A stretch of DNA of 64,000 nucleotides from an uncultured virus (IMG/VR IMGVR_UViG_3300045125_000114) (Duplodnaviria > Heunggongvirae > Uroviricota > Caudoviricetes), in the IMG/VR virus record IMGVR_UViG_3300045125_000114; one strand, 5' to 3'. A program made the translations under genes and the position numbers. Below the pieces are notes generated by a model that worked only from the letters and a program-made list of their open reading frames with translations, was not told the DNA's origin and made no database searches. Each line of letters starts with the position of its first letter. Within the stretch, counting starts at the first letter, position 1. Shown one piece after another: positions 1,376 to 60,726 of the stretch.

Positions 1376-2101
1376 GTTCGTTGTCCTTATTGAGTGTGTC
1401 GGGCGACATAGACTAGACGGGGTTGCACATCGTTGGTGCAACTTAAACCGGCCATTTTTTGAGTGCGTTCCCGGCCGCTTCTTTCACGAGCAAGCAGACA
1501 CAAGCCACGAGCAGGAAGATTCTTGACATTTTGTTGTCTCCGGTGCGGTGCTGGCACCGGCTAGGGTACAAATGTTTGAAGTGTCGGTTAGCCTTTTGTA
1601 CCTTATAGCGGCTTCGAGCTATAGCCGGGTCGGGCTATAGCTCCGGGCATTACTTTTGCGGTCGGGCGTCCGCTTCGGTGGGCGTCGAAGTGCGTAAGGT
1701 AGTGGTGTCCCAACTTGGTTAGCTTGAACTTGGAATCTACCAACCGCATCCGCTGTAGCCGCCAGTGTGCGAAGCCTGTAGCTCGCTGCCCACTCGCTTT
1801 TCCCGCACCATTCGTCGGAGTTGTAGAAGGCGAGTACGTTACCGTAAGCACACTCCCAAGACGGTTTCCGTAGCTGCCTCTTCCAATAGCTGGCGGTACT
1901 CCCAACCGATGTCGGGCAACTTGTGTCCGTTGTCCTTAATGTGTGCGTTGCGGTGGTGCCGGTCGATCAGTTCCCAATCACGTTCGCAGTGCTTCTTGGT
2001 TTTCATCGCAGTTCCTTAATGGTGGGCGTGGCCCTTTAGGTACAAAGGTCTAACCTGAAGGGCAAAAGAGAAAGGCCGGGTGAGCGCCCCGGCCTTCTCG
2101 T

Positions 2102-2704
2102 TTACTTCCAATCCTTCGGCATGTTGACTTGGTAGACTTGCGTTTGTGCTTCGGCTTGCAGCACAGCCGCCGGAATGTAGGCTACCATTTTGGTGCGCCC
2201 GTCACCGGGGTCACGTTGCACCCGTAGTTCGCACGTCCCGCCGTTCTTGTTGTACTTCAACACTTTGCGTTGCGGGCCTTCGTCCTTCGTCCAACCGATC
2301 ACTTGCGCCGCCCGTTGCATGTCGGAAATGATCTTCTTGGCAACGTCAACGTGCGTCATTACGACGGTTTTGCGGTCTTGGCGAAGCACAGCGTACAGCT
2401 TGCTATTGCCCTTCATGTCACGGCCGATCTTGTTTTCCCGGCTGTGCCATGCGGTGAAGCGGTCGAACACTTCAAAGAGCAAGTCGTCGCCGGTTTCCCG
2501 GTACTTGATTTGAACCGCCGTGCGCTTCGTGCCCTCGACTAACCAGCGGTCAACCTTGAACGTCTTGTCTTCCACGTCGGTAGCGTCTTCCAGCTTCACG
2601 CCACACTGTTCGATGAGGGCATCAGCGATTTGTGCCTCACGGTTCTTCCCGTGCTTGACACGCTCGTGGGCTTCCAGAAACCGGGTCGCAACTTGAGTCG
2701 TCAT
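2102..2704 (-). CDS. Putative PD-(D/E)xK nuclease-fold protein
   Basis: E...EDKTFKVD...AVQIKYR resembles the restriction-endonuclease-like active-site pattern; start MTTQV after RBS and motif A. Confidence 0.45.
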   Translation of the reverse strand: MTTQVATRFLEAHERVKHGKNREAQIADALIEQCGVKLEDATDVEDKTFKVDRWLVEGTKRTAVQIKYRETGDDLLFEVFDRFTAWHSRENKIGRDMKGNSKLYAVLRQDRKTVVMTHVDVAKKIISDMQRAAQVIGWTKDEGPQRKVLKYNKNGGTCELRVQRDPGDGRTKMVAYIPAAVLQAEAQTQVYQVNMPKDWK

Positions 2705-3353
2705 CGCAGTCATCCTTATTGAGAGTTGGTCGGGCGACATAGACCAGACGGGAGAGCGCCCGTCTGGTGCAACAAGTTTTCTAAATTACTGCCGGGTCAA
2801 CAGAATGCCTTGAATCAGGATGGTAAGCGCGCTCCCACCGGTACAGGGGCAATTGCTTCTTGACCGTGGTGAGCGTGACGTATTCGCCATCAGTGCCGAA
2901 CGGCCCGTAAACATCGGCGGGCAGATTGTTCAAGCATTTGGCGATGAACTCGGCTTCTTCGGCAGACTTCGCAGGGTGAAACTTGTGGGTAGTCATTGCA
3001 GTTCCTTATGTGGTTGGGCGACCTTCAAGGTACAACTGTCTAAAACAGGCCGGGTGAGCGCCCCGGCCCGTTCGGGCTTCACATCGCCGCAATAGTGGCG
3101 ATCAGCTTGAGTTTGACGGCATCGTGCCCGGCGGGGTCGTCCCACGAGAAGATACCGTGTTCCATCGCTTTGGCGAGTTTGGGGTCGGTGACTTTGGCGA
3201 CTTCGAGGAGTTTTTCCCACTGCACTTCGAGGTCGGCGGTGTTGATGCCCGAATCGAGGATGCGGTGCGTGGTTTCTCGCATTGTTCTGTCCTTATGTTG
3301 GGTTGGGGCGACACCGGCTAGGGTACAAATGCCTAACCGGGAATAAACAAAAA

Positions 3354-3373
3354 GGCCGGGAAGAACCCGGCCC
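3354..3373 (-). terminator. Intrinsic terminator
   Basis: GGCCGGG-N-CCCGGCC hairpin followed by a T-run on the minus strand; related hairpins at about 2074-2093 and 3048-3068; each lies just upstream of a motif B copy. Confidence 0.65.
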
Positions 3374-4672
3374 TTTCGGTCACAGCAACCCGGCAGACTT
3401 GGCTACCGAGAGGTTTGCGGCGACCGTCTGGAAGCGGTTCGGATTCCGCTTGAACTCGGTGAGGGCTTGGGCTTCATCCCAGTCGCTCGGCAAGGGTGCC
3501 GGTGGCGACGATGAGGTTGGTGCCGTCGATGGTCACGATGAACTTCGTGATCCATTTGTTGCTCTTTTCGTCACGGAAGGTGTTGGTGCCGACCTTGAGG
3601 CGGCGCGATCTTGACGGTCTTGGTCACGTTCACATCCTCTTGAGTTGGGGTTGCACAAAGCGGGGTACAAAAGTTTAACGCTTGCAGTTGGCGAAGTCTT
3701 CGGCCATTGCGGTCGAAGCGTGGTAATCGTTCATGCGGCGGAACAGTTCGGCGGTGTAGCGAAGCATCGCCTCTTTGACCGCTTGGAACAGGTGGACGTT
3801 TTTGTAAACTTCGTCGCCTTCGTGGTTATGCACCGTGTAGTACGGTCGTCCGGCGGCGTCGAAGAACTTGCCGATGGAAAGCCCGCCGTTTTCGATGAGG
3901 ATATAGCTCTCGTCGTGGTGCGGCGTCATCAGCGTGATGCTAGGCCCATCGGTGAGCGTGCCGTTACATGATTGGACGCCGTGAAAGACCTTGAAGTAGC
4001 TCGCAACGTATTCCACATCTTTGTGATTGAACATTGCACATTCCTTAGTTTGAGGTTCGCAAAATGGCAGGTGCCGGAACGGGCACACAACACCAGACGT
4101 AGGAAATCTAAATGTTGTGCGTCCTACCCCGTTCCGGTCCTTGCCGCTGACGGTGGGGACAGCCTGCTGCTGCCCCACTTACCCTGTTTGCAGGACCGTT
4201 TACGCTTAGTATTCTCCGACCGCACGAGCTATACGCTGGCTGCGATTGCCTTGCCGACGGTCACACTTGTGCTTGTGTTTACCAGCCCCGCCCCGGTGAG
4301 GGGTATGCCCACGAGCTATTGCCGCAGGGTCAATGGCGGGCACCGTGAACTTGATCGTCTTGTCTTTGATCGGGGTCGTGTTTTTCATCGCAGTTCCTTA
4401 TTGGTGTTTCGCACATAGACCAGACGGGGGAGTGCCCGTCTGGTGCAACAACTACTTTGCTTTTTCCAATTCGGCCCGAAGGCGTTGAACTTCGTCGGCC
4501 AGTTCGTCTGACCGTTGTACTTCGCACAAGAGAAGATACATCAAGTCACACTCTTGACATGAAAACCCGGTTTCGATTGGGGTATCGACAGTTACAACGC
4601 CGTTTTCGAGTGTGGCGGTGTAGCCGGGGTATTTGCTGAGTGTTTCAACTTTGTTTGCCACGCTGTCACTCC

Positions 4673-5065
4673 TTATGCCGGTTTCGAGTTTTTGACCCAC
4701 TCGACAACTTTGGCGATTGCCTTGTCCGGCGTCCCGGTGTACTTGCGGAACTTGCTCGGCACTTTGCTGCCCACGCTCGTCAGTTCGACAGTGACCTTTT
4801 CGCCTTCGGTGTAGTACCGTTTGCCCTTTTCGGGGTGAACGGCGAAGATGAAATAGGGCGAGTTGTGGAAGATGCCGTAAGTCCATTCGGCTTTCGGCTG
4901 ATAGCTCCCCACGATGCGGACGTTGGAGCAAAGGTTGTCGTCGGTGGTCGCTCCAATGACCGGGGCAAGCCCGTTGATCGCTTCGTTGGCCTGTTCGCAA
5001 ATGGCCTTCATCTTCGGGGGCACGCCGTTCACATCGGGGCGGGAGATGTCTTGCACGACAGACAT
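4673..5065 (-). CDS. Hypothetical protein
   Basis: Clean ORF MSVVQDISRP..., RBS and motif A upstream. Confidence 0.75.
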   Translation of the reverse strand: MSVVQDISRPDVNGVPPKMKAICEQANEAINGLAPVIGATTDDNLCSNVRIVGSYQPKAEWTYGIFHNSPYFIFAVHPEKGKRYYTEGEKVTVELTSVGSKVPSKFRKYTGTPDKAIAKVVEWVKNSKPA

Positions 5066-6352
5066 TTGGTTCTCCTTATTTCGAGTCTCGCAACATAGAC
5101 CAGACGGGAGAGCCCCGTCTGGTGCAACATTTTCTTTTATTCTTCGGGCGGAAGACCTTCCCATTCCGGCTTGACTTCGAGTTTGGTAACGTGGAATTGG
5201 CTGTTAGGGCCAATCAACCCGTCTTCATGTTCAACGAACAAGTCGGGGCGTTCTTCTTGCCACTGTTCAATGGTTTTGCCTTCGTTGTCTTCTCGTGGCT
5301 CGAAGGCGTGGAAATCATCGGGGACGTGATGGCATTCATCACAAAAGTGGCCGGGCATGATGCCGTCTTCTTCCCCGAAATGGTCGCAATGCTTGCAGAG
5401 TTGGTACAGAGTTTCGTCTGGCATGGCTTTCCTTATTGTTGGTGTTTCGCACATAGACCAGACGGGCACTTGCCCGTCTGGTGCAACATTTTCTTTTACT
5501 TTGCGACGAATGCCCACTTCGGAACGTAGTCGGGCGGCACGAACTCGAAGATGTTGGGTGCCGTTTCGGTCGTGGCTTCTTTACAGGTGCCGGTGAGGGC
5601 ACGTTTTGCGGCAAGGCGGCGAACGGAAACGTAGTAGAAATCGCACCGTGCGTCTCGGATGGCGTCCCACGTTCGGTACGCCGTATCTGTCTCACGAATG
5701 GCTTGCCAAATCAGGTCGGCCCGGTCGTTCTCCCACGGCAATCGTTCTTCTAGGTGTTTTCTGAACTCTCTGTTGAACTTGCACAACTCGTTACAGATTC
5801 GTCTGTCGGGAAGGCGATTTCAATTTGCCGAATGGTCGGAGCGTCTTGCAGGTCGGCATAGCGCTTGCGAACGAGGTCAAGGTCGGCTTGGAAATCGTCG
5901 TGGGCGGTGAAAACGTACCGGCTTTCTCGTGCGTCCATCAGTTCCAGTTCGACGGCTTTCGTCTGTAGGGCTTGCCGTACTTCCGGCCAGCGTTCGAGCG
6001 GCACGTTTTCGGGCGTGCCCACCGGGGCGGCTCAACATCACGAGGGCGAGCAGAAGGTCGCTTGGCGTCGGCATTTTCGTTACTCCTGTTGGGGCGACAC
6101 CTTCATGGGTACAAAAGCCTAACTTTCGAGTCGAATGTTGGAGATGTGGACAGATGCGGTGGTGAAGCAAAGTTTGTTCGCCACGTCCTGACGTGCCCGG
6201 ATTGCGAGTTGCTCAACAATTTCGTCACGGTCGGCGTCGTCGGCTACGTTGTGTCGCACGGTGTATTCGCCCTTGTAGACTTCGCCCGGCCACCCGCCCG
6301 CCTTGTAATCGACCGTTGCAGAAACGAGCATTTGCACACCCTCCCTAATTAA

Positions 6353-6426
6353 GTCTCGCAGAGCGGTTTCGATCCGCCTTTTCCGGGTTGAAAGCCCAGC
6401 GTCTTAGCCACTAGACGACTGCGAGA
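6353..6426 (-). tRNA. tRNA-Glu(TTC)
   Basis: TCTCGCA/TGCGAGA acceptor stem, D arm GTCT-AGTGGCTA-AGAC, anticodon arm CTGGG-CTTTCAA-CCCGG, T arm with atypical ATCGAAA loop; CCA not encoded. Confidence 0.8.
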
Positions 6427-6462
6427 AAACCGGTTTTTCTAGAGGAACCGGCAAACCTCCGA

Positions 6463-6549
6463 GTGGGTTCTAAGGGAATCGCACCCATCGACTTCTTCCC
6501 GACGTTTATTGTCGCCTGTGTTACAGACAGGTGTCGGGGTTAAAACCCA
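6463..6549 (-). tRNA. Atypical tRNA-Tyr(GTA)-like RNA lacking a normal D arm
   Basis: TGGGTTT/AGAACCCA acceptor, CCTGT-CTGTAAC-ACAGG anticodon arm, GGG-TGCGATT-CCC T-like arm; CCCGAC/GTCGGG stem replaces the D arm. Confidence 0.5.
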
Positions 6550-6661
6550 TTAGCAAACGGCCGGGGGCTATCACCCTTGTGGCCTGTGGAAACCGGCGGC
6601 AACTTGACCGTTTGCTGTACTAAGACCAGACGGGAGAGTGCCCGTCTGGTGCAACAACTTT

Positions 6662-7090
6662 TTAGCCAACGTACCCGGCAAGCTCAGGGGCAGCGGGCGC
6701 TACTGCCGGGGTCACGAGATTGGCGAAGACGCCCGCCAACACTTGCTTGACCTGTTCGGCAAGGATCAGTTGCACGGCCGGGGTGCGAAGGGCATTCGCC
6801 ACCATGCCGTTCACTTGCTCTTGCGTGACCTGTTCGCCCACGACGCTGCGAATCGCCTCATCAAGCCCGTTGATGTTGTCCGCTTCGATGGTGGCGTTCT
6901 CGATGGCGTTCTCGACAAACCGTTCGAGGCCGGTCACGTCGTCGGCATCGACTTCGGGCGGGTGGTCTTGCAGGTAGCTCTCGATAGCGTCATCGAGATT
7001 GTTGATGTCGTCGGCTTCGATGCGCTCGTTGCGAAGCGACTCTTCGACCATTTCCTGAATCGCTTCGGCCAGCTTGTCAGTCGCACTCAT
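6662..7090 (-). CDS. Acidic hypothetical protein with three internal (I/V)xAD(D/N)(I/V)xxL repeats
   Basis: IEADDINNLDDAI / VDADDVTGLERFV / IEADNINGLDEAI; flanked by motif A on both sides. Confidence 0.75.
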   Translation of the reverse strand: MSATDKLAEAIQEMVEESLRNERIEADDINNLDDAIESYLQDHPPEVDADDVTGLERFVENAIENATIEADNINGLDEAIRSVVGEQVTQEQVNGMVANALRTPAVQLILAEQVKQVLAGVFANLVTPAVAPAAPELAGYVG

Positions 7091-7162
7091 CTTGACCCCT
7101 TATGGTTAGTGGTGTCCGCATAGACCAGACGGGAGAGTGCCCGTCTGGTGCAACATTTATTT

Positions 7163-7456
7163 TTAGAGTTTGACGCCTTCGAGCAGTGGGGCGACCTGTT
7201 CGGCGTACAGTCGCTCGAACTCTTCGCTGGAAACTCGGCCCTTCTTGTTGCCGCCGTCAATCCAGTTGATGTGTTTGCCGGTAGTCGGCCCCCAATCGTT
7301 CTCCCTCACCACACGGTCGAAGCCGTCCAAGTGGAAGGCGACCGGGGTTTTGTAGCTGAACCACACGGTCAGCGGCCCGATGTCAACCCGTAGGGTGTGG
7401 GCACCGTAGTTGTCGCTGCTGTACTGCCCGTAGTTGCTGATGGAGGGAAGTTCCAC
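7163..7456 (-). CDS. Hypothetical phage protein
   Basis: 97 aa with FSYKTPVAF...WGPTTGKHIN; flanked by motif A. Confidence 0.75.
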   Translation of the reverse strand: MELPSISNYGQYSSDNYGAHTLRVDIGPLTVWFSYKTPVAFHLDGFDRVVRENDWGPTTGKHINWIDGGNKKGRVSSEEFERLYAEQVAPLLEGVKL

Positions 7457-8018
7457 TTTCGTACATCCTTATGTTGGTGTTCTCGCACATAGACCAGACG
7501 GGAGAGTGCCCGTCTGGTGCAGCATTTAGTTGCGAATTACGCCGCAACCTTTTCGACGGCCTTGAGGGTGACGGTTGCAGTTTCCGGCACGTTGAACAGG
7601 GCGCTGGGCTTGCCCCTTCCCTGTCGGATTGGGTCGGCTCCCGGCTTCCGTCACGATGCCCTTCGCCAGAAGGAACTTGAGCGTTCCAGCGGCCACGGCG
7701 TAATCGACTTCGTGCAGGGCGGCGAACTCATTGGTTGTCAGAATCACGTTTCTCTCCGGGTTTGGGTAACATGGCGGTGAGTGTGTCGCAGTCTTCGTGC
7801 ATCAGCTTTCGCACACGGGCGATTTCTTGTTTCGTCAGGCCGAGAGCGCCCCCGGCTTCGTTCTCGCTGCCCCAGACGCCTTCAAGCACGGACAGGGCGA
7901 TAAGAACAAGTCTTTCTTCTTCTGGCTCTTTCATCGTGTCCATTTATTTCCCCGTATTGATTGTGTCCGCAAAGACCAGACGGGACAGTTCCCGTCTGGT
8001 GCAACATTTAGTTGCGAA

Positions 8019-8273
8019 TTACGCTGCGAGCTTCGGGCGACCACGGAACAGCTTGATCTTGGCTTCCTTCGCCAGCTTGCCGAGCGTCGGCATGGAGATG
8101 GAAACCAGTTCCTTCGGCTTGCCCGGCGTCACCTGCACACCGGTAGTGGCGAGAAACTCCCGGCCCTTCGTAAGACCCATCTCCCGAATCACTCGGACGA
8201 TGGCCTTCTTCTTCGTGCCGACGAACTCGGCGGGACGACCGGGGCCACGCTTGACGGTGTTGGACTTCGACAT
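8019..8273 (-). CDS. Small basic putative DNA-binding protein (AT-hook-like GRP motifs)
   Basis: KRGPGRP and FRGRPK motifs, Lys-rich, ends KLAA. Confidence 0.55.
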   Translation of the reverse strand: MSKSNTVKRGPGRPAEFVGTKKKAIVRVIREMGLTKGREFLATTGVQVTPGKPKELVSISMPTLGKLAKEAKIKLFRGRPKLAA

Positions 8274-8303
8274 TTTCCTTACTCCTGTTGGGTTTGGTTG
8301 AGA

Positions 8304-8448
8304 CATAGACCAGACGGACATCCTTCGGGCGGGTGCAAGTTCTTTTCGTTTTTCTTTCGTCAGTCACTCGCACCGGACATAGACCAGACGGACATCCTTC
8401 GGGCGGGTGCAAGTTCTTTTTGTTTTTCTTTTCGTCACTCGCACCGGG
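8304..8448. repeat. Tandem duplication of an approximately 74 bp unit containing a variant motif A
   Basis: CATAGACCAGACGGACATCCTTCGGGCGGGTGCAAGTTCTTTT...TCACTCGCACCGG occurs at 8304 and again at 8378. Confidence 0.9.
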
Positions 8449-9515
8449 ACACCCCATTGGGTACAATTGTCTGATGTCGAAGACAGACATTTGTACCACG
8501 AGCTACTTTTGACGAAAAAACCCGGCGTGAGCCGGGTTATCCCATTGCCAGAACGATGCCGGTGATGTGTTCTGCGAGCAGTTCCAAATCCCTTTGCGTC
8601 TTGTCGTACTGTTTCCACATCTTGCCGTCGGGCTTGCAGCGTCGTAGCGCTGATTGCACCGACCGGCTTGGAACATCACGTCACGAATGCGGTTGATGTA
8701 CCACTGTTTGCGGAACCACGAGTCGAGTCCGGCGGGCGGCTCGAACCGATCTTTGCCGATGTACTTCTCAATCAGTGCGTCCATCTCGGCGTTGTGGCTC
8801 TGCCAGAACGCAACCGCATCAATTGGTTGGTCGTCGCTCATTTCACACTCCAAAGAAGAAGGCCGGGCACCTTGCGATACCCGGCCCACTCATCCTTCTA
8901 GCACCACACACGGTACAAAAGTCTAACTTTCTTCCTCATCCTTGAGGTCTTCTTCCGTCATCACGTCCACGATGGTGCTTTTCTCAATGTAGCCGCCCTT
9001 GATGTCGCTCACGAGTTCGCCCCTCAAAACCACTTCGTCGGGATCGGTCTTTTCGTCGTGATCGACTACAACCTTCACAAGTGCGTACTTAACGGTTTGC
9101 ATTCTCGTCATGATGTCGTGCCCCTTTCAGTTCTGGGGCCACATCACGATGCCGCCTTGAAGTTCGGATTCGGGCGACCGGGGGCCAGCACAGCGGGCTT
9201 CGTGCCCTGTTCCGGCGGCGGTTGATACAGCGCTTCGCCGATTTGCTTCCGTAGCTCGAAGAGGTGGCGAGCAACTTGGCGACCTTCGTTGGATACCGCT
9301 TGCTCGTTGGCTTCGAGGATGCCCAGCAGTTCTTCGGCCATCTCCTCATTCAGCATGAGCGGAATCACACGCTTGAACCGGCTGACGCTGAAGGCGGGCT
9401 TTGCACCACCGAAGACACCCCGGCGGTCAGTGTTGGGAACGTTCAAGGCTTTCTCCTTACTTGGAAACAGGGTTATCGCATAGACCAGACGGGGGCGAAC
9501 CGTCTGGGTTCAACA

Positions 9516-10136
9516 TCACTCGCCGGTAATTTGCTTGAAGAGTTCCGGGCGGTTCTTCTTCAGCCAGCACAGAGCATCGTCGGAGTCAACGTGGCACTCG
9601 AAGCCAATCGTTTCCCGCCGGGCACCGTTGTTGTACGTCTCCAGATACTCGAACACATCGGCAACGTAGTCGTCACGGCTTTCCATGAACTGAGCTACTG
9701 CGTCGGCCGGATAGTCGCCGCCCCAATCACAACCAGCAAGCGACTTGATCTCGTCGTCGCTTGCTTGCTCGAACCACTTGACTGCATCGAAGTGGGTTTC
9801 GGCAGCATGATCGTCCGTGTGAACTTCTGCATCAATCACGAAGTCGTCGTCTTCCTCGTCGTCGTCTTCCTCGTCGTCGTCATCTTCCTGATTCGGAGAT
9901 GGGGGCAGCGGTTCTAGGGAAGCCGTCGGTGCAGCGCTCAACTTTGTCCCGAACTCGTTAATCATGTCGATGGCGTTGTTCAGCGACACGACGGCAGAAT
10001 CACAAGCGTCGTCGTCAACGACATCATCGCTCTTGATGTATTCGACCGAAGACCGAGAAGCGTCGAGTTCGTTGCGAACCCGTTGCACCATCTGCTCGAA
10101 CTCGTTCTTGAGGGCAATCAGTTCTTCAAACTTCAT
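9516..10136 (-). CDS. Highly acidic hypothetical protein
   Basis: 206 aa with a DDDDEEDDDEEDDD tract; motif A on both sides. Confidence 0.75.
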   Translation of the reverse strand: MKFEELIALKNEFEQMVQRVRNELDASRSSVEYIKSDDVVDDDACDSAVVSLNNAIDMINEFGTKLSAAPTASLEPLPPSPNQEDDDDEEDDDEEDDDFVIDAEVHTDDHAAETHFDAVKWFEQASDDEIKSLAGCDWGGDYPADAVAQFMESRDDYVADVFEYLETYNNGARRETIGFECHVDSDDALCWLKKNRPELFKQITGE

Positions 10137-11116
10137 CGTTGCTCCTTATCGTGAGGTGTCCGCAAAGACCAGACGGGGAAGTTCCCGTCTGGTGCAACAA
10201 CTACTTTTCGTATTTTGCCTTGAGGCTGGCGAGCAGCGCCTCGTTCGCCCGCTTCACGTTCGGCGGCTTGTTCGGCTTCCCACTTGGGTAGCCACTCCTT
10301 CTGAATGGATAGCCGCTCTTGGTATTCTGCCGTACACCGCTCGTAATACGTCAAACCCGATTCGTAGTTGGGGTTGGGCACTTCTTCCCACTTAACGCAA
10401 ACAATCTCGTCCCCGTAAGCCAAGATGGTTTCACAGTCTTCGGGAATGTCGGCCCGATTGATGGAGTCTTGGCGAAGAAGTTCGACTTGTCGTTTTACCG
10501 TCTTGACCGGCGGTGTCGGAACGTACAAAGGGTAGGGAGAAAACCCCTTCGGGTAATTTGCAAGATTCGGCATCGCTTTCTCCGTATCAGGTTAGTTGGA
10601 ACAGTGAGTGCTTTTTCTCGAACTCGTCAAACGCTTCTTCGTCTAGCGATTCGAGGGCGCTTGTCGAGTGCCTGAATGTCGCCCAGAGAAATCGTGCCGT
10701 CGTCAACGAGCATGGCGAGCATGTGAACCGGATCGCCCCAAGCCTTCTTGACTACTCGGCCCACGGTCAGCGGTGCCGGTTCGATGTTGTTCAGGATTTC
10801 GTTACCCTGACAGTAAATCTTGTCCCAATCCCTTTCCCGCTGGTAGCCGCCGATGTAGGCGTAGCTACCGTCACTGAACTTGATTTCGTGTCGCAGTCCA
10901 GCGGTGCGTTGTTCAACGTAGACGACAAGCCCCTTCTGCCACACCTTGCGACTCGCCACGTCTTTGCGTCGGCCGTCCGGGGCCGGGTTCGTCACATCGG
11001 CAGTCAGCTTGTACCAACCGGTGGGCGGAATCACAGGGCTGAGAAGATTCGACATTTTGTACTCCGTATGGTGTTCGCAAAGACCAGACGGGGAAGTTCC
11101 CGTCTGGTGCAACAAC

Positions 11117-11576: not shown

Positions 11577-11642
11577 GTTTGCTCCTTATTGTTTGGTGTC
11601 CGCATAGACCAGACGGGAGAAGTCCCGTCTGGTACAACATCT

Positions 11643-17129: not shown

Positions 17130-17651
17130 TCATACCAACTCCCCATTCTCGTAAAACTCGTACTCGTTTCCGTCCATCCACTCGGCGAAGTTTGCATCCT
17201 CGAACGAGCCTTCGTACTCGTTCTCCGTGTCCTTCAACAGTTCCCGGAACGCCGCTTCCATCAGCTTGTTCACGTCCCGCTCGCCGCCCCGGAACGCCTT
17301 GCGGAAGCCGTCAATGCAACTCTCGTCCCAACACCAACCCGTCAGCTTGCAGTCGCCGATGCCCCGCCCGGTGCGGCGGTTGTACCGGCCCAGAGATTGA
17401 AGCCGCCGCTTGATTTCACGGCCACTCAGTTCCGGCATGTCGAACGTCATGCGGGAATAGCTGCCGCCCGTCCAGTCGATGCTCCAATCGTCAATCTTCC
17501 CGTCGAAGTGTTCCGCCAGTGCCGTGATGCTTTTCATCGCTTCGTGGTCGGAGCGAAACCCGTCTTCTCGGAAATGATCTTTCGCCCGTTCCTTCGCCCG
17601 TTGCGTCGGCAGTTCGGAGAACTTGTAGATGGTGATGGTTTCAGTTCGCAT
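17130..17651 (-). CDS. Hypothetical phage protein (MRTxxxxIYKFSEL...NEYEFxENG type)
   Basis: Terminal motifs recalled from uncharacterised phage proteins; RBS and motif A upstream. Confidence 0.65.
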   Translation of the reverse strand: MRTETITIYKFSELPTQRAKERAKDHFREDGFRSDHEAMKSITALAEHFDGKIDDWSIDWTGGSYSRMTFDMPELSGREIKRRLQSLGRYNRRTGRGIGDCKLTGWCWDESCIDGFRKAFRGGERDVNKLMEAAFRELLKDTENEYEGSFEDANFAEWMDGNEYEFYENGELV

Positions 17652-18834
17652 GACCGACCTCCGTATTTGTTTCGTTCGCACATAGACTAGACGGGAGTAA
17701 CCCCGCCTAGTGCAACATCACGCCGCTTCAATTTCGGAATTGAACACGAGCGTGGCCGTGCCAGTGCGCTCGAATCGAACGGTCGGGTTGCCGTTTTCGA
17801 CGTACACCACTTCGCCCACGTCGCCCTTTTCGGCGTGAATGTACGCCCCCGCCGGGAACTTAGCCGCCGGGTCGCCCTCAGTGCCGCTCTCGGTAATCTG
17901 CTTCGTTGCCTTGACCTTTGTTCCGACTTCCATCACTGCCCCCTTAGACAGAAAGGATTTCGATTTTGTCCACGTCCGGCGTCAGGAATTGCACCAGCAA
18001 CTCAGCCGCCTTTTCTTTCGTCACCACCGTGCCGAGATTGTCGTGATCGTGGTAACGCTTCTCGTCAACGTAGTACCCGGTCGCCGGTTTGTACTGAACC
18101 GGATACTTACCCGCCTGACCTTCGTACTTCACCAAGCATGGCGATACATACTGTACTCCCATTTGCGTGATCGTTTGTAGAAGAACGTCGGAGCCCTGAG
18201 CTCCCCAACTGTCGGTCATTTCGTTCCAAATGATGAGCATGGCATTACCGACACTTGCGGCAGCGTACTGACCGTCACCGCAAGTGCCCGGATGAACCAC
18301 CGCGGGCACAGTTCACCACGTTGCCCATCTCGTGGCCGTGCCGCTTCTCCACTTCCGACTTCCAACGCTTGATCGTTGAACACAATCGACAGTTTTCGGT
18401 CGCGCATGACGTTCCTTATGGTTTGAGTTACGCAGAAAAGCCGGGCGAGAATCAGGACGGATTGAGTACCGTTCTGGCTGTCCCCGCCCGGCCGTGTCTA
18501 CGCCACCTTCTTCGTCACACCGAGAAGAGTGACCTCGGCACCGTTGGCGTTGGCATTCAGGGTGAACTTCCGGCGACTCCGGTTCTTCACGGTGATCGAA
18601 CCGACCACCTTCGCCCGCCGACAGGTCGGTTTCCGCCACCGAAACCGTCACCGCCGTGATCGTCCCTTGCTTTTTGGAGTTGGCGATTTCCGCCAGCGTC
18701 CCGAAAGCCATCTCAACCGCCGCCCCGACCGTTTGCAGTGCCGTCATTTTCGTTCCCCTTGTGTTAGTGTTACCGACATAGACCAGACGGGCGAGCTACC
18801 AACTGGTGCAACTTCTTTTTCTTTTTCACCGCCA

Positions 18835-19350
18835 TTACGACTCGTGAACCGGACGGAGCGACTGACACTTCACACAAATGTCGCCCTCACCGCCCGGCCC
18901 CGGAATGCACTCACGTTCGTCCACCAACTCGTGACACTTGATACAGTTCACCGAATGCCGATCAACCCAATCGAGAGTGTGAATCGGTACGTCAAAGACT
19001 TCCGGCAAGAAATCTTCTTCTCGGTACGGATGGGGAACGTCAATCTCTTTGCTCTCGACAATGCGAGCGCCCACAAGGTTGAAAGCCCGATTGACCCACA
19101 GCATCAGATGTTCGGCCGTCAACCCCATGTACGGCAATACCCAAACGGTCGCTTCCCACTTGCCCGGTTCGTACTCGTGCGGGCCAACCGATTCGCCGCC
19201 ACACTGGTCATACGCCCAATCGAGCAACGGGTGTTCGTCCGACCACATGCCATCTTCCGACAACAGGCCGCTCACCCAATCGCAAGCGCCACCGTTGGCG
19301 GAATCGCCGGTGTCAAACTTAATTTCCAATTTGTAAGCCGTAGCTTGCAT
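18835..19350 (-). CDS. Acidic hypothetical protein with C-terminal CxxC...CxxC zinc ribbon
   Basis: CIKC...CVKC; flanked by motif A. Confidence 0.65.
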   Translation of the reverse strand: MQATAYKLEIKFDTGDSANGGACDWVSGLLSEDGMWSDEHPLLDWAYDQCGGESVGPHEYEPGKWEATVWVLPYMGLTAEHLMLWVNRAFNLVGARIVESKEIDVPHPYREEDFLPEVFDVPIHTLDWVDRHSVNCIKCHELVDERECIPGPGGEGDICVKCQSLRPVHES

Positions 19351-21359
19351 CTCGCTCCCCTATGTTGGTTAAACGCACAAAGACCAGACGGGCCGAAACC
19401 CGTCTGGTACAACAAATTACCTGACCTTTTTCAACGCTGCGTCGATCACACTCAACACCGGGCGATCATCGACCACGGCCTGCAGCTCGGTTCGCCATGT
19501 ACGCCGGGCCTTCAAGCACGTCCTCACGCAACACTTCCAGAGCGTGCTTGATTACGGCAATTTCGTCGTGGAGTAAATTGCAAGATTCACACCGTTAGGA
19601 AGTAGGAGAAAGAAATCTCGATCTTCGGCATGTAGCCGCCCGTATCGGTCTTCGTGTAGATGTTCACACGCCAATCCTTCTCGCCAACCGGGGTTGCCGT
19701 CACTTTCAGAAAGCCCGCCGGAACGCCGCCCGCCTTCTCAAAGGCCAGCTTCACGGCCTTCTCCCGGTTCGACTTCTCCACGTTCTCCGGCTTCGCTGCG
19801 ATTTGCTTTTCCAACTCGTGCCTCTTGCTCACGCCGCTCCTGAATCTCGGCCTCATCGCCCCAATTTACGAGCATTTTTGTTCCCCTTCGGAATAAGACA
19901 CACATCCAAAGACCAGACGGGGATATTCCCTCTGGGTGCAAGATGTATTTAGGCGTCAAACGCCTTGCCCGGCTTCGTGTAGATTTCCACACGGTTCCCG
20001 CCCACCGGATTCCAAACGTGTTCGTCCGGCGTGCGCCCCGTCGAAGGCGTCGGATTCTTCGCCTTATTACGGTAGTGTGTCCACCACACAAGTTTGTCGC
20101 CTTCGCTCGCCAGAGTTTTGCTCCAATCGGTCATGCTCAGGCCGCTCTCGCCCAAGCCAATGTAATTCCAATTGCTGCCCTTCTCTGCGATTACTTCGTG
20201 CCGCTTCTTGTCGTAAAATGACCACACTTCGTCAATGGTGTTCAGCGTGACAACCAACTTGTTGTCGTGGTAAATGTCATAAGCGATGTTCTCGACTCCG
20301 TACCCATTCGCCATCAATTCGACGCTCGCTTGCCATATCGTTTCTCCGTTGAGTGTGCCGTGTAAGGTACAAATGTCTAACCGCCGTACAGAAAAAAGAG
20401 GGCCGAAGCCCTCTTTCGTTACTCCCGGTCCAACCGCTGTAGGCCCAATTCGTCGCCCGTCAGTTCCTTGCGGGGGATTTCCGACAACACCCGCCCGTAG
20501 AGGTTCAGGACGTTTTCAACCTTGCGGTCGGCGTACACACACGACATATCGAGGTCTTCGTCAATTTCACTGACAATCGCCTCAGTCAGTGCCGCCCGAT
20601 CTTCGCCGTCGTCCGGTTCGGTCAGTTCGTAATCGAAGGGGAAGAAATAGGCGCTCCAACCTTCTGCCTTTAGCTGCGGGTCTTCGGTGTTCTTCACCTC
20701 ATCGACCCAAGCCGCTTCTGCGTCGTCCTTGTCCCAATAGAAATTGAAACCGGCCCCGCCGTCGTACTGCCACGCCACAACCCAAACGGTGATCTTCGCC
20801 ATGTCGCCCCCTATGGTTGAAGTGTCCGCACAGACCAGACGGGGAAGGCCCGTCCGGTGCAACATCTTTACTGTTCCAAGTCGCCCGCATACAGCACCGC
20901 CTCAAACCCGTCAGGAAGCTGCACAGTTACCGTGTCTTCCCGCTCGTCAACGGCGATAACCTTCAGCGAGTGCCCACGGGGAAACATCGTCTCGATTTCT
21001 TCGCCCGTGTCCGGGTTGCTCGCCTCAACAAAGAACATTTGATTCTTCGTTTGAACCCTGTCGCCCACCTTCGGCAGTCCGCTCACACGCTCAAAACGCC
21101 GATGAGCCTTCTGCATCAAACTTACCGCCGTCGCACGGTCGGATACAGCCGATAGCTTTTCTTTCAGACCGGCGAAGTATTCCGTGTCCGGCAATTGCTT
21201 GGCGTATAAAGCCGCCACATCCAGAACATCCGCCGTCAGTTCCCGCTTGTCGAAGTATTTCGCTTCGCCAACCATTGTTGCACTTTCTTCGACCGTCATG
21301 TTTTTTCTCCGTATGAGTGTCCGCACAGACCAGACGGGAAAGGCCCGTCCGGTGCAACA

Positions 21360-21869
21360 TCACGAACGAACTTTGTACGTCACGCCGTCGAAATCAACGT
21401 CGGTGTAGTCGCTTTCGAGGTTTTCCGCTGTGGCGTCCCAATCAATCACGATGTAGGAAGGCATGTTCCGGGGCAAGTCGCCCAAATCGTCAACCAACTG
21501 CTTGACGTACTCGGACCAATAGCTCTCCCGAACCATCGTCGCACCGTCCGACCAATCCGACGTGGCGCTCTCGCCCTCTTCGTTCACAGCTTCCAACACC
21601 TTCAACTCGTCGCCGTTGTCAGTGTCCCAATCGTCCAACTCATCAACGAGCGATTCACGTTCGTCAACCAGATTGTTCATCTGGTCTTCCTCTTCGTCGT
21701 TCCGCTCGTCGTTATCCTGCAAATCCTTGAGCAGTTCGCCCTTCTCGTCGTCCCAAGCGTTAATGGCGTCCTTCAACGCCTCACGTTCGCCCTTCAACTC
21801 TTCCAGACGGGAAACAATGTCCCGGCTGTCAATCACATCGTCGGTGTTGTCGATGGTATGGCGGGCCAT
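21360..21869 (-). CDS. ArdA-like acidic antirestriction (DNA mimic) protein
   Basis: Very D/E-rich; C-terminal MPSYIVIDWDATAENLESDY resembles the ArdA C-terminal YIDxExxARDL motif. Confidence 0.5.
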   Translation of the reverse strand: MARHTIDNTDDVIDSRDIVSRLEELKGEREALKDAINAWDDEKGELLKDLQDNDERNDEEEDQMNNLVDERESLVDELDDWDTDNGDELKVLEAVNEEGESATSDWSDGATMVRESYWSEYVKQLVDDLGDLPRNMPSYIVIDWDATAENLESDYTDVDFDGVTYKVRS

Positions 21870-21942
21870 GTCATTTTCCCCTTGTTCGGTGTCCGCATAG
21901 ACCAGACGGGAGAAGCCCCGTCTGGTACAACATCTTTAGAAA

Positions 21943-22750
21943 TTAAGCGGCCATCGCCAGAGCGTACCGCTTGCTTGCCTCAATTACACGCCCGACGCCT
22001 TCCGTTTTGCCGCCGCTACCGTGTGCGGCAATCACAACCGAATACCGAACGTCGCTGGCGTCACGTCGGCCGTTGCAAGCCGCCGCACGTCTCACACGTC
22101 TTCGTAAAACCCGCTTCCTCACTCGCCGGACAAACAATTTCCGCCTTGCTCTTGTCGGCAAGATTCGTCACCGTGCGGAACGTGCGCCAAGCCCATCGCC
22201 TTAGCACGCTCACACTCTTCTACCGAGTGCGTACTCGCCATGATGCGGGTAGACCAATCGGAGAAACGAACGTCGGCCCATTGGTGAGTGTAACCCGGTT
22301 GCGCCTTCCCGGTGCAAAGTGCCGACAACTTATCCCACGCCTTCATCGGGATTGCTACCGGGTCGCCGTAACTACCGTAACGCAAACCCCGGCCCACAAA
22401 CTTCTTAGCGTGCGACTTCGCCAACTTCGGGTATCTACCCTTTTTGAACGAACGGTAAACCGCCAGCGGTGCCTGTTGCACAAGGACGTAGCAACTCCGG
22501 CCCTTGTTCCGAAGCCCGTCGGCCGTCTGAACTACCGTCCCACGAAGCGGACAGTTACCACAAATTGCCGAATCCGCCCCGGTGTTCAACGCTTGCGTCG
22601 GTTCAACGTCGGTGCGAATGATCCACGTCTGAACCAGATTGCCCGTCTTCCCGTTCTTCAGTGCCGAACGTCGCAACGCCCACAATGGGCGAACCGTCAA
22701 TCATCGACGGCCCCTGATAGAACACCACACCACGAAGTTTGCTTCGCCAT
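21943..22750 (-). CDS. Cys-rich putative Fe-S (radical-SAM-like/gp88-like) phage protein, frameshifted
   Basis: KTGNLVQTWI, ICGNCP...CYV, LRYGSYGDP, YTHQW; a C-terminal Cys cluster lies in another frame; ends AMAA. Confidence 0.55.
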
Positions 22751-23834
22751 ATTTCCACTCCTTATGTGTTTCCGACAATGACCAGACGGGAGTGGCCCCG
22801 TCTGGTACAACATCTTTTTTAGACGGCCTTTTTTGCCGCTTTCGCGCCCGTTCGTACTCCCGACGCTGGCGCTCCCAATCGTACAAATCGTCCTCATCGA
22901 CCGGGTGCCCGATGGCAATTTCCAAACCCCGCTTCTGACGGTTCAGACGGGCCGATTCCGAACGAATGTGCGCCGCCGACGCCTCACCGTCACAAGACAA
23001 GTTCTCTGGCGACAGACCGACAGTAAGCACTCAGCAGCAAGCATCGTACAGTGCGTTGTTGTCGTCAAACGGGTTGTACGTCAACTTCTCACGGGGCACG
23101 GGCGGGGCAGTAACCGGCACCGAACCGAATAGCGGTGCCTTCGGAATTGCCGTCGGGTCGGCCGGTTCCATCAGCGAAAATGGCACCGTCCACATGGTTC
23201 CAATCGGATAGTCCCGAATCGAACCACGATCTTCCAACTGCTTGACCTTCGCCTTCTTCGGGTTGACCTTCACAACCTCACCCAACGTCTTCTCGCCGTG
23301 CTTGCGGCCGAAATAGACCTTCATGCCCTTGACAACGTGTTCCCGTAACATTCCGTATACCTCTGTGGTTAGTGGAGACGCATAGACCAGACGGGAGAAG
23401 ACCCGCCCGGTACATCATTTTGCAATTTCCGCATTACACCAATCCTTCGCCGCCTCAGCGGTCGGAAAAGAATGAAGGTGCTTCTGCCCCCGGTACACCG
23501 TCCAACGATTTTTGACGTAGAAATCATGTGAAGTGAAATCGCCCGGCCTGTTCTCCACAATACGGAAAGGCGACTTGTACCAAACTTCGGTTTTAATCCA
23601 CTCGGCTTCTTGTTTCGTCTTCGCCATTGTTGTCCCTTATTGTTGGGGGTTCGCATAGACCAGACGGGAGAAAGCCCGCCCGGTACAACATCACTTGCAA
23701 TTTTTCCGCCACACACCGGTGACAGGGTACAAATGCCTAACCCAACTCGTCAGACATTTGTACTTTATGTAATTTGGTGAAATTATTGAAAAAATATCCC
23801 TTGTTACTACAATAGACAAAAGAGGGATATATTT

Positions 23835-24297
23835 ATGCGTACTTGGAGTGAGGATCAATTGAAGCAAGCGGTTGCAACATCGACAACCCTTACGGATTGC
23901 GTGCGAGCGTTAGGTCTTTCTGTTGGTGGTGCCGCCCGGAAAAGCATAACTCGCCAAGTCGAGAAGTTCGGCCTAGATACTTCACATTGGCTAGGTAAAC
24001 GCAAGCCGCACAAGCCAGACCAAATTGTTCTTGTCAAAGGGAGCGAGTACCGCAATCTCAGTGGGTTGAAAACTCGCTTGCTAAATGCGGGGCATCTTGA
24101 ATACCGTTGCTACCGCTGCGGCCTCATTGAATGGATGAACGAACCTATAACGCTCCAGATTCACCATAGAAACGGCATCAGCAATGATAACCGTTTGGTG
24201 AATCTGGAACTGCTTTGCCTAACTGTCATTCACAAACCGACAATTACGCCGGTCGCAACGTCAAGCGGCCTTCGCCATCGCCGCACTTCCCTTGTGA
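23835..24297 (+). CDS. HNH endonuclease (one apparent frameshift)
   Basis: CYRCG...LQIHHRNG...NNRLxNL-like segment then LC(PNCHSQT) after a single-base shift; the only clear plus-strand gene in the array. Confidence 0.8.
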
Positions 24298-25355
24298 ACA
24301 ATCCCCCGCTTGTCCAACTCAGTTAGTCCCGCTTGAGTGATAGTATAGCCTTTGTTGGTACACAGTACAGTACGCCGCCGAATCGTCCGTGTCCGTCAGA
24401 AGCCACGGCATAATGAAACGCTCTACTTCTTCCGCCTTCTTCCCTGCGACGTTCACAATGCGATTCTTCGCTACCGGCCCTTGACCCACGCCCGGAGAAT
24501 CGCCAAGTGCGTTTCGTGCATACCGTGTTCGTCAATGCCTTCATCAGCCGCTACACGGCGAGCTACTTCCGCCCACTCGCCGCCTTCCATCTGATGAACT
24601 AGCTTCACATAACGGGCAAACTCCAACGCCTTCCGAGGAACACGACTGTTGTAATGCGCCACCAACTTACAAACATCATCCGAGAAGTCGGGATTAGCCA
24701 ATTGAACGATCTTGGCAATGTCAGACTTCGGGAGATACTTGAGGTTTACCGGCGAAAACCGAGTGCGGAAAGCATCGAACAGCTTGCCCTCATCCGTAGT
24801 CGCCAACATCCAACAAGCGTTAAAGCAATTGATCGTCTTGCCGGATTCCGTTACCATCGTTGCGTCAGAGTGTTCCGTAGCCTTCAACAGCCCGTCAACA
24901 ACGCTCTGGCTCAGTGCGTGAACTTCATCGAAGAACACAACACACGGCGGCAAAACGTAATGCTTCGGCTTCACAACCTCTACCAGCGGAACGTGCGCTT
25001 CCTTCAACACACGCTCGATAAGGGCGAAAAGCCCGTCCATATCCTTGACCGACTTCGGAGAGACTTCCACAAACGGCAGTTCGACTACCGTAGCGAACAT
25101 CTTCGCCAACGTGGTCTTACCCGCCGACGCCGGGCCGTAAATGGCAAACGCCAAATCACGGCACAAGTGGTCAGGCTTGCCGAGAGCATCGAAAGCCGCC
25201 GCTTGCAACTTACGAATCGCCTTGTCGTTGCCAATGAAGCGGCTAAACGCACACTTCCCGTTCTCCCGACTCACCGCCGAACGCCGCTCATCAAGCGACG
25301 GAATCGGCAGAAAGTCCGGGTGCTTCGGGCCGAAAAACACCTTGTATCGCTGCAT
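24261..25355 (-). CDS. ruvB: RuvB-like Holliday junction branch-migration AAA+ ATPase (frameshift near C-terminus)
   Basis: FIGN, Walker A GPASAGKTTLA, Walker B FFDEVHAL, LATT..GKL..AFRTRF, VPRKA, GIDEHG, then a GPV...PWL winged-helix-like tail in the shifted frame. Confidence 0.75.
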
Positions 25356-25424
25356 CAGTTTCTCCCTAATGGGCAAAGACCAGACGGGGCAAACCCCGGC
25401 CGGTGCAACTTCTTCAGCAAAAAA

Positions 25425-26695: not shown

Positions 26696-26717
26696 TTTGG
26701 TGTGTTATTAGTGTGTT

Positions 26718-60694: not shown

Positions 60695-60726
60695 TGAACC
60701 AGACGGGTTTGGTGCCGTCTGGTTCA
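60695..60726 (-). repeat. Outlying motif A copy
   Basis: TGAACCAGACGG-N8-CCGTCTGGTTCA, a 12-bp perfect stem. Confidence 0.8.

Follow-up and report, generated by a model that had tools for sequence, protein, structure and literature searches.

Reiterated promoter-like hairpin modules flank the small genes of an uncultured huge phage and often coincide with sites of cassette turnover

The DNA considered here, hereafter the window, is a stretch of 64,000 nucleotides from an uncultured virus of the Caudoviricetes (IMG/VR record IMGVR_UViG_3300045125_000114), in which one short and mostly palindromic element recurs between small genes over 24 kb. What is such an element, and what does it do to the genes that it separates? 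A preliminary description, made from the letters alone, had reported 35 co-oriented palindromic elements delimiting single genes or RNAs, and had proposed a self-contained expression and recombination element by which a phage gains, loses and shuffles its accessory genes one by one. The reading favoured here, to which we assign a probability of roughly 0.6, is that of a reiterated, self-contained promoter/hairpin expression cassette whose repeated module doubles as a recombination linker in a huge phage. The window is phage DNA with tail-fibre genes and a gene for an AAA+ clamp-loader/RuvB-like protein, nearly all else being ORFan; its own contig is 180,833 bp long, and homologues of the AAA+ gene occur on contigs of up to 299 kb.

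Copies of the element

The two-box pattern TTGNAMC-N13-17-CCGTCTGGTCTWTG was searched for on both strands of the window. On the minus strand, the sense strand of the array genes, it occurred in 37 copies with an observed inter-box spacing of 13-15 nt, all in the orientation of the genes, and on the plus strand in none. Thirty-five copies were located inside 1407-25409, from 25408-25374 down to 1441-1407, and two (449-415 and 63058-63024) lay outside the range first described. The count of 35 co-oriented elements was thus reproduced, but the palindrome was present in 30 of them only. These displayed a stem of 9-11 bp with a folding free energy (dG) of -8 to -22 kcal/mol as sense RNA and a loop of 6 nt (23 copies), 5 nt (6 copies) or 7 nt (1 copy), and the remaining five, at 19941, 18811, 8412, 8338 and 1441, consisted of the flanking boxes without a palindrome. 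Searched for by itself, the exact palindrome CCAGACGGG-N4-8-CCCGTCTGG occurred 18 times versus 0 in 100 shuffles. By allowing up to two substitutions per arm, the number increased to 31, with 30 copies in 2743-25404 and one at 60698-60723. A profile of the element and its leader gave 31 strong minus-strand copies and several weaker ones, the plus-strand matches being to the palindromic core only. The repeat is real and far beyond chance. Neighbouring elements were more similar to each other than random pairs (0.499 vs 0.428, a value reached in 0 of 5000 permutations), although some best-matching partners were about 10 kb apart.

Rfam matched only a tRNA in the window and left the element unmatched. 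Against the cultured-phage collection, the 24-kb array had no match by megablast and one module none of note by blastn, and the palindrome pattern gave 0 loci in viral_contigs. The same pattern hit 33 single-copy loci in metagenome_contigs, where only the palindromic core fitted the profile, and these were set aside as unrelated hairpins. Elsewhere the two-box pattern was detected at 2 viral and 27 genome loci, all single-copy and without further profile matches, the 27 being about what was estimated by chance; these were likewise discarded.

Anatomy of the module and content of the array

Read on the sense strand, the module, termed class A, runs from a stop codon over 1-13 nt to the first box TTG(C/T)ACC, from there over 13-15 nt to CCGTCTGGTCT(A/T)TG, and then through a leader to a start codon. 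It had been claimed that the element starts within a few nucleotides of a stop and is followed by a leader, a ribosome-binding site and a new open reading frame (ORF). Both parts of this claim were borne out: in 26 of 37 copies the first box was preceded, at 1-13 nt, by the stop of an open frame of at least 45 codons, and a Shine-Dalgarno (SD) sequence with a start codon was present 18-33 nt downstream of CTATG in 31 of 37. Between the stop and the left arm there is A-rich sequence and then TGTTG(C/T)ACC. In the hairpin itself, AGACGGG is the left arm and CCCGTCTGGT the right arm, with a loop rich in pyrimidines between them; CT(A/T)TG(Y)G and an A/C-rich leader carrying ATAAGGAG follow. The right arm and CT(A/T)TG are nearly invariant across the copies and the left arm is variable.

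Rather than a single gene or RNA per module, as first described, the intervals between successive two-box copies (74-1720 nt) hold one to three ORFs; the RNA units of that description were found. No Pfam match (E<=0.01) was obtained for 52 of the 56 array ORFs, and no paralogous pair was detected among the cassette ORFs. Among the 56 array ORFs and the 64 other ORFs of the window no cas, transposase, nuclease, integrase or other recombinase family was found, in agreement with the earlier statement that neither a cas gene nor an integron integrase is recognisable. One cassette carries a tRNA-Glu, which lies 186 nt downstream of the element 6620..6654, and this element drives no ORF and has no SD leader. 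Another carries a candidate noncoding RNA (ncRNA) or small RNA (sRNA), which was without an Rfam match and ends in an 11-bp stem and a U-run, that is, in a canonical intrinsic terminator of its own. Since the elements also precede a tRNA and an RNA without an ORF, the signal is transcriptional or RNA-level and not translational.

The hairpin is dispensable, yet kept as a structure

Seven of the 37 copies lack the palindrome (449, 1441, 8338, 8412, 18811, 19941 and 63058). Their spacers are unrelated, and all seven retain TTGCACC and CCGTCT(G/A/T)GTCT at the unchanged spacing of 13-15 nt. Alternative stems were seen near the copies 449, 8338/8412 and 19941, and none near the rest. The hairpin is dispensable and the two boxes are not. 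Boxes kept at a fixed spacing across a free spacer argue for a promoter-like two-box recognition and not for a stem-dependent site.

Where the hairpin is present, it is conserved at the level of structure. In the alignment of the window stems 96.9% of 290 cells pair, with 12 changes from A-U to G-U, 1 compensatory pair and 9 unpaired cells, and the wobble-bearing copies fold 2.5-9 kcal/mol better as sense than as antisense RNA. This pattern indicates selection for the fold itself, in the sense strand. Two observations weigh against such selection: the covariation in the window is weak, 37 of 500 shuffles reaching it with the sequence mostly conserved, and the wobble changes of the window stems are not independent events.

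The stem begins a few bases past the preceding stop; it would stand at the 3' end of upstream or read-through transcripts and falls outside the transcript predicted from its own promoter. It may act as a weak terminator, an insulator or a 3' stabiliser of the upstream message. Less favourable to termination are the tail of the stem, UCUAUG or UCUUUG without a U-run, and a terminator scan that flagged only three elements, with a total of 29 vs 25.8 in shuffles; on these grounds a canonical intrinsic terminator was rejected, although a stem is present.

A homologous element in relatives

Thirty homologues of the AAA+ protein were aligned, and the alignment fetched 15 loci from IMG/VR contigs of 22-533 kb. 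A search of viral_contigs for loci with the single protein had given nothing, whereas the alignment-based search succeeded. In most of the loci, small genes are again arrayed over the 10 kb downstream of the AAA+ gene, and a lineage-specific reiterated motif stands before each.

The genome G001 (locus L068), a record of 532,729 bp rated 100% complete, contains an AAA+ gene 68% identical to that of the window. Its element reads (stop)AAGT-TTCCGAACC-N15-GGTCTTC-C(A/T)TGCG, followed by a leader containing ACAACCATAGGGAG and then ATG, and ...ACC and GTCT are separated by 16 nt in this genome as in the window phage. G001 harboured 25 exact copies of the element (23 forward and 2 reverse), and a reversed-pattern control gave 0. 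The array behind the AAA+ gene comprises fourteen copies, 12 of them with a spacer hairpin, and the 11 copies outside the array, scattered over 5-262 kb, have a hairpin in 3 cases and none in 8; most of these 11 sit 20-45 nt upstream of an SD and ATG. The G001 stems differ between identical boxes (TTGC/GCAA, TTGC/GCGA, TCGC/GCGA and TCCG/CGGA), and all of the 42 stem cells pair, with 2 compensatory pairs and a score reached by 7 of 500 shuffles. In both phages the copy before the AAA+ gene, which has no gene upstream, displays the weakest stem or none. Among 55 cassette ORFs of the window, 7 have a homologue in the G001 array, in permuted order, and the order in locus L067 is different again. 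The genome LR756511 (595 kb, AAA+ 45% identical) was examined and dismissed: it has no comparable repeat in the 41 kb around the AAA+ gene and shares only that gene.

Other repeats were noticed in the fetched loci. In L070/L074, just downstream of the AAA+ gene (11142-11800), at least 12 units of the form GAGTGAACCA-N10-GATTTTACAT follow one another in tandem, about every 35 nt; they could be iterons or stacked promoters. L072 displays long hexamer-like runs of GGTCTT/GGTCTA/GGTCTATG in several successive units at 84-1125, which may encode low-complexity protein repeats. L071 (TAATTGTATTTTTGAAACGGAACTTCCGTATCAC) and L076/L077 (GAAACTGCTTCGGATTCGGAAGAAGCAAAGCCGATATATGG in L076) have their own reiterated intergenic modules with short palindromes, and one module copy of L076 precedes a tRNA-like sequence.

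Promoter type and candidate polymerase

Sigma-70-type promoters were predicted 7 times vs 7.5 expected, none within the elements, and the stem-to-start distance of 18-33 nt leaves no room for such a promoter downstream of the stem. The two boxes resemble instead the promoters of extracytoplasmic function (ECF) sigma factors, which are marked by AAC in the -35, CGTC in the -10 and a spacing of about 16-17; sigmaE, the group 4 ECF example, recognises GGAACTT-N16 and a -10 with the CGTC motif (PMC3397946). The window element has the geometry ...ACC-N16-GTCT, with CGTC at about -13 to -10. Like ECF promoters, it has two boxes about 16-17 nt apart with any spacer, as in 7 window and 8 G001 copies. 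The window shares the -10 CGTC and G001 shares the -35 GAAC. G001 also encodes a 322-aa protein with Sigma70 r2 and r4 and a 179-aa protein with r2 only, and the more distant LR756511 gave three sigma region-2 matches. No match to the RNA polymerase families PF00623 and PF00940 was found in G001, the control for PF00940 having matched nowhere.

Several of these comparisons do not fit so well. The -35 of the window is GCAC and not the typical AAC, and the -10 of G001 is mostly GGTC, with CGTC in 2 copies. Typical ECF sigmas are smaller than the 322-aa r2+r4 candidate, which moreover comes from the relative and not from the phage of the window, and jumbo phages have divergent RNA polymerases that can escape Pfam. 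From its sequence the element is nevertheless most likely a promoter, probably transcribed by the host core polymerase with a phage sigma factor of ECF-like geometry.

Other promoter types were considered and dropped. A sigma-54 reading fails on GG-N10-GC, which does not fit, the sigma-70 extended -10 and Bacteroidetes-type -7 box readings were abandoned from the sequence, and a T7-like contiguous promoter is at odds with an upstream box 16 nt away across a free spacer. The promoters of the N4-type virion RNA polymerase need a hairpin extruded on the template strand for recognition. In the window the wobble pairs favour the sense strand and the hairpin is dispensable, and this type was rejected as well.

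A second promoter-like motif, class B (TTAGRCWTTTGTACCY), was observed in 14 co-oriented copies interleaved with class A and located about 35-45 nt before starts. Its part TTGTACCC alone occurred 10 times vs 1.5 expected, and the motif is homologous to the array motif TGTACCCTAG of the relatives L067, L069 and L070. In the copies 25509, 23740, 8474 and 1579 the motif belongs to a larger inverted repeat (GGTACAAATGTC...GACATTTGTACC), of which it makes up the right arm. A separate canonical terminator was present within 80 nt upstream of 5 of the 14 class-B copies vs 1 of the 37 class-A copies; that class B often has a separate terminator and class A rarely lends indirect support to a class-A stem that would end or insulate the upstream message.

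Turnover of cassettes between strains

Contigs of four public runs from four studies (biofilter, freshwater sediment, lake water and wastewater), here denoted X2, X5, X7 and X9, were placed on 2001-22000 and were 93-100% identical to the window. X9 is labelled RNA-Seq, was judged to be probably DNA and may mix several strains. The joints listed are 15 of 46, and the 12 of them outside a low-complexity stretch (24 breakpoints) were analysed; the counts below refer to the joints listed. The stretch in question, at 9843-9889, consists of GTC/GAC (an acidic repeat in the ORF 10136-9516) and draws unrelated contigs and spurious joints.

Breakpoints favoured the modules: these make up 14.8% of the stretch and received 11 of the 24 (binomial P 3e-4). 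In eight of the 12 joints one end or both fell in a module, and three joints recurred in two runs each. Four breakpoints were located within 2 nt of the 5' edge of TTGTTG(C/T)ACC. Others lay at -62, -37 and +10 to +28 relative to the first box; their places include start codons, +3 past the putative start site, and 13-28 nt upstream.

An 8.4-kb contig of X2 is collinear with 11968-20846 and contains at least seven indels or replacements. In X2 and X5 the ncRNA cassette between two elements is swapped for 252 other letters, and in X2 and X7 the complete 298-nt module 15733-16030 is missing, with twin elements flanking it. Small ORFs situated between a stop and the next element are missing at 4452-4671 in X2 and at 16951-17128 in X2 and X7, and an element together with its gene (20417-20880) is missing in X9. 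A further X9 joint brings the gene ending at 11647 directly before the element at 13825, which is a changed gene order. The order is thus not identical between relatives, and the proposal that genes are gained, lost and reordered singly agrees with strain indels and swaps enriched at the elements and with the permuted order in the distant relatives.

Not all events fit so simply. Neither end falls in a module for the indels 12176>12451, 18373>18404 and 20091>20253 and for an insertion of 202 letters at 14239/14242, 4451>4672 and 16950>17129 have only one end at an element, and the runs are represented by k-mer contigs, which are prone to break at repeats. The one-ended and module-free events mean that a simple element-to-element crossover cannot explain all of the turnover. 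Breakpoints at module edges, at starts and past the start site would be consistent with crossover in short repeated homology after alignment, and for the one-ended events one would have to invoke illegitimate recombination, or an element in between that was lost. A dedicated recombinase would not be required; none was found among the window ORFs, and G001 had no PF00589 or PF00239 match, that is, no Tyr or Ser recombinase.

Two of the cassette ORFs were recognisable. An ORF for a DUF2061 membrane protein at 12225-12419 (minus strand, E 3e-8) is, besides AAA+, the sole array ORF over the Pfam curated cut-off; it is missing from an X2 contig, in which 12177-12450 is replaced by 37 letters. A small zinc-ribbon ORF (CxxC...CxxC) at 15800-16029 (minus strand) is apparently frameshifted, and its cassette is the one missing in X2 and X7.

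Other features of the window

The AAA+ gene is open for only 294 aa, and its homologues have about 365 aa. The frame is lost over about 40 codons (roughly 24350-24470), with four stops, after which the homologue-like frame resumes; either two compensating indels or an assembly error would account for this.

Upstream of the array, 25430-26700 is a non-coding region of 1.3 kb in which the GC skew changes sign. Within it are two strong stem-loops, both bidirectional (25621-25652 and 26053-26083), a tract rich in CA and, at about 26610-26700, 4-5 iterons of GATATAGCTCA; the region is a candidate replication origin or control region. Farther away, three tail-fibre-like genes at 37013-40997 (minus strand) have long repeats in common (82-96% identical blocks, 38.0-39.9 kb), and five 99-nt tandem repeats are located at 40021-40537 in the same gene region. 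At 28333-28368, between two minus-strand genes, there is a perfect inverted repeat of 17 nt whose arms are 2 nt apart.

Table 1. Coordinates of the array, its RNA cassettes and anchor gene, and the copies of the class-A and class-B motifs. Class-A rows give boxes from the two-box pattern scan unless the row says otherwise.
Feature	Coordinates	Strand	Evidence or remarks
Array of 36 co-oriented class-A modules	415..25408	-	two-box pattern and stop/start geometry
tRNA-Glu cassette	6353..6425	-	anticodon UUC; tRNA and Rfam match
Candidate ncRNA cassette, about 170 nt	13860..14025	-	no ORF; fold z -2.7
AAA+/RuvB-like ATPase gene	24294..25355	-	first of the array; anchor for finding relatives
Class-A element	25374..25408	-	first element, before AAA+/RuvB-like gene; one stem mismatch; no upstream gene
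Class-A element	23654..23688	-	hairpin; two G-U pairs; dG sense -16.6 vs antisense -8.9
Class-A element	23381..23415	-	hairpin; two G-U pairs
Class-A element	22776..22810	-	hairpin
Class-A element	21896..21930	-	hairpin
Class-A element	21324..21357	-	hairpin (G-U)
Class-A element	20829..20862	-	hairpin (G-U); with gene 20802-20419 missing from X9 contig
Class-A element	19907..19941	-	both boxes kept, canonical left arm lost; small separate hairpin upstream
Class-A element	19378..19412	-	hairpin; strain breakpoint 19414 at 5' edge
Class-A element	18777..18811	-	hairpin-less
Class-A element	17681..17715	-	hairpin; one compensatory C-G to U-A pair
Class-A element	16912..16946	-	hairpin; breakpoint 16950 at 5' edge in X2 and X7
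Class-A element	16059..16093	-	hairpin; near-twin of 15794
Class-A element	15759..15794	-	hairpin; inside 298-nt module 16030-15733 missing in X2 and X7
Class-A element	14641..14675	-	hairpin, one mismatch
Class-A element	14026..14060	-	hairpin; precedes ORF-less RNA cassette
Class-A element	13788..13822	-	hairpin (G-U); breakpoint 13825 at 5' edge
Class-A element	13134..13167	-	hairpin
Class-A element	12768..12802	-	hairpin
Class-A element	11977..12010	-	hairpin (G-U)
Class-A element	11603..11637	-	hairpin
Class-A element	11078..11112	-	hairpin
Class-A element	10163..10197	-	hairpin
Class-A element	9479..9513	-	hairpin shifted 2 nt
Class-A element	8378..8412	-	hairpin-less; tandem twin of 8338
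Class-A element	8304..8338	-	hairpin-less
Class-A element	7970..8004	-	hairpin
Class-A element	7488..7522	-	hairpin
Class-A element	7119..7153	-	hairpin
Class-A element	6620..6654	-	hairpin; upstream of tRNA-Glu
Class-A element	5452..5486	-	hairpin
Class-A element	5094..5127	-	hairpin
Class-A element	4414..4448	-	hairpin; breakpoint 4451 at 5' edge
Class-A element	2738..2772	-	hairpin
Class-A element	1407..1441	-	hairpin-less
Class-A element	415..449	-	no canonical palindrome; other 11-bp stem across first box, dG -25.9 vs -12.7 shuffles
Outlying class-A copy	63024..63058	-	hairpin-less
Outlying hairpin copy	60698..60723	-	divergent 3' tail GGTTCATAT; missed by two-box pattern
Class-B motif starts	25775, 25509, 23740, 20380, 15098, 8926, 8474	-	TTAGRCWTTTGTACCY
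Class-B motif starts, continued	6122, 3678, 3336, 3043, 2053, 1579, 795	-	TTAGRCWTTTGTACCY

Proposed mechanism and alternative explanations

The cassette would work in the following way. Each module would present a two-box promoter, with a -35-like TTG(C/T)ACC and, 16 nt on, a -10-like CGTCT, then GGTCT(A/T)TG. The transcript would begin near (A/T)TG(Y)G, its short A/C-rich leader providing a strong SD. Within the dense array the spacer and the -10 region would also be shaped into a 10-bp stem-loop, and this stem, 1-13 nt behind the preceding stop, would end, insulate or stabilise the upstream message; each small gene, tRNA or ncRNA would be its own transcription unit. Because the same module of about 90 nt flanks unrelated genes, it would offer portable homology through which general phage recombination could delete, insert, swap and reorder cassettes. 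The self-contained expression signal of the preliminary description finds support here in the fixed stop/start geometry, in the positions before a tRNA and an ncRNA and in the boxes kept by hairpin-less copies. A dedicated recombination function does not: the breakpoints listed are not all at one position, and the search for a recombinase or a sigma factor among the window ORFs and in G001 yielded only the latter, as the r2+r4 protein of G001.

The same arrangement could in principle arise at the level of RNA, with one or more long transcripts, a hairpin that serves as processing or stabilising site for an RNase III/E-like or Cas6-like endoribonuclease of host or phage, a leader that enhances translation, and no promoter at all. 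The sense-strand-specific pairing with its 12 G-U pairs, the place of the element between cistrons, its length and shape, which resemble a CRISPR repeat, and the lack of sigma-70 promoters found in the array are all in keeping with such a site. We regard it as unlikely, since hairpin-less copies that keep their spaced boxes (7 of 37 in the window and 8 of 11 in G001 outside the array) are unexpected for relics of RNA sites, no nuclease or cas family was found among the 120 window ORFs, and the boxes fit a sigma-type geometry. More doubtful is an operator, at which a dimeric repressor of phage or host would bind the inverted repeat in the promoter and switch the whole gene class. Palindromic operators within phage promoters are common, and the 10-bp inverted repeat does overlap the putative -10 and spacer in 30 promoters. 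However, at least four stem sequences occur between identical boxes in G001, with compensatory changes, and such variety within one genome speaks against one site for a dimeric repressor; in the window the 12 left-arm A-to-G transitions keep the pairing on the sense strand only, and 7 of 37 promoters are without the site.

The hairpin might also matter as folded single-stranded DNA (ssDNA). It is a very improbable idea that it does more than end transcripts and, on what would be the lagging-strand template beside the candidate origin, serves as substrate for an integrase-free, structure-specific excision and insertion of cassettes that preferentially cuts TTGTTG(C/T)ACC at its 5' edge; if true, this pathway would make the huge-phage clade the carrier of a promoter-bearing integron-like cassette system. 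The odds are poorer still for a truly integron-like mobility, in which the hairpin folds in ssDNA like the attC site of integrons and a dedicated recombinase moves one-element cassettes. Four breakpoints within 2 nt of one position, the same 5' edge, would suit it, as would the G-T wobble in ssDNA and the twin elements flanking one strain-specific cassette, and a leftward firing of the candidate origin at about 26 kb would make the sense strand the lagging-strand template. But other breakpoints among those listed lie elsewhere, the elements are locked to starts and dispensable as hairpins, the perfect 10-bp stem is without the extrahelical bases and R/L boxes of attC, and no recombinase was found in the window ORFs and no Tyr/Ser recombinase match in G001. 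Hardly any credence is left for a selfish or unrelated repeat, be it a palindrome like those of repetitive extragenic palindromic (REP) sequences and miniature inverted-repeat transposable elements (MITEs) or a degenerate CRISPR array. A length of 35-37 nt, a palindrome and many copies are what such repeats have in common with the element, whose copies are co-oriented in 37 of 37 cases, keep fixed distances to stops and starts and are separated by intervals of 74-1720 nt with ORFs; no cas or transposase families were found among the window ORFs and no Rfam match was obtained, and a CRISPR array, in which repeats alternate with short unique spacers of similar length beside cas genes, was rejected.

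Comparison with known systems

Conserved motifs just upstream of many starts, sometimes with an upstream inverted repeat, are known from the cluster K mycobacteriophages as start-associated sequences (SAS) and extended SAS (ESAS). They differ from the window element in sequence and phage group, and their function is likewise unproven. With integrons, the promoter/hairpin array has in common the co-oriented single-gene units, a hairpin-forming repeat between them and the gain and loss of single cassettes. It differs in that no integrase was found, the expression signals reside in the element, the element is fixed to the start codon, so that the cassettes would not lack a promoter, and the breakpoints listed vary in position. 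An attC site spans 57-141 bp, and its imperfect palindrome has extrahelical bases and the boxes R''/L''-L'/R'; beside the integron array lie attI and the gene of an IntI-type tyrosine recombinase. An identity with attC was rejected for an element of 26 nt with a perfect 10-bp stem and a 5-7-nt loop, and an identity with integrons was rejected too, no IntI-type recombinase being found among the 120 window ORFs and no PF00589 or PF00239 in G001. The open-access literature searched yielded no account of huge-phage cassettes of this kind, nor of any whose promoters are ECF-like.

The closest likeness is to the promoter-early stem-loops (PeSLs) of the T4-type phages RB49/phi1, T4/PST and KVP40/nt-1, as presented in PMC2839356 and PMC4122927, and the earlier statement that the array matches neither attC arrays nor PeSL cassettes has to be given up for the latter: architecture and behaviour are those of PeSL cassettes, with another promoter type and the stem inside the promoter. 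As in the PeSL phages described there, a module of stem-loop, promoter and SD fills the gaps between small ORFans of a hyperplastic region, the reiterated module has a lineage-specific sequence and occurs also in 'half' (degraded) form, and close relatives differ by single-gene insertions, deletions, replacements and displacements beside the modules. The junctions of PeSL mini-circles mapped to the same kinds of places as the breakpoints reported here (PMC2839356). The differences are as follows. The PeSL promoter is a sigma-70-like early promoter (TTGACA-N17-TATAAT or a close variant) and the stem lies upstream of it, whereas the window has ECF-like boxes and a stem, without a U-run, in the spacer and -10. 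Terminator activity and mini-circles were experimentally shown for PeSLs, and the stems of the window are putative terminators. The carriers of PeSLs are T4-likes, and those of the present element belong to an uncultured clade with genomes of 340-533 kb. The array is therefore best classed as a PeSL-like promoter/terminator cassette system, and it appears to be a variant and not a member, lacking both the sigma-70 promoter and the stem upstream of it.

The PeSL principle, in which a gene has its own promoter and insulator and the signal doubles as recombination linker, would thereby be extended to an uncultured clade of phages of 340-533 kb, in a design more compact than the PeSL, with the stem inside a promoter that is not of sigma-70 type and probably specific for a phage sigma. 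It provides a testable promoter consensus for a phage group without a cultured member, together with a candidate sigma factor in a relative. In the annotation of ORFan-rich regions the two-box motif could help to mark off genuine small genes, an sRNA and a tRNA unit. As in the comparisons among PeSL phages, cassettes are exchanged between close relatives, and here their turnover is seen directly in natural populations.

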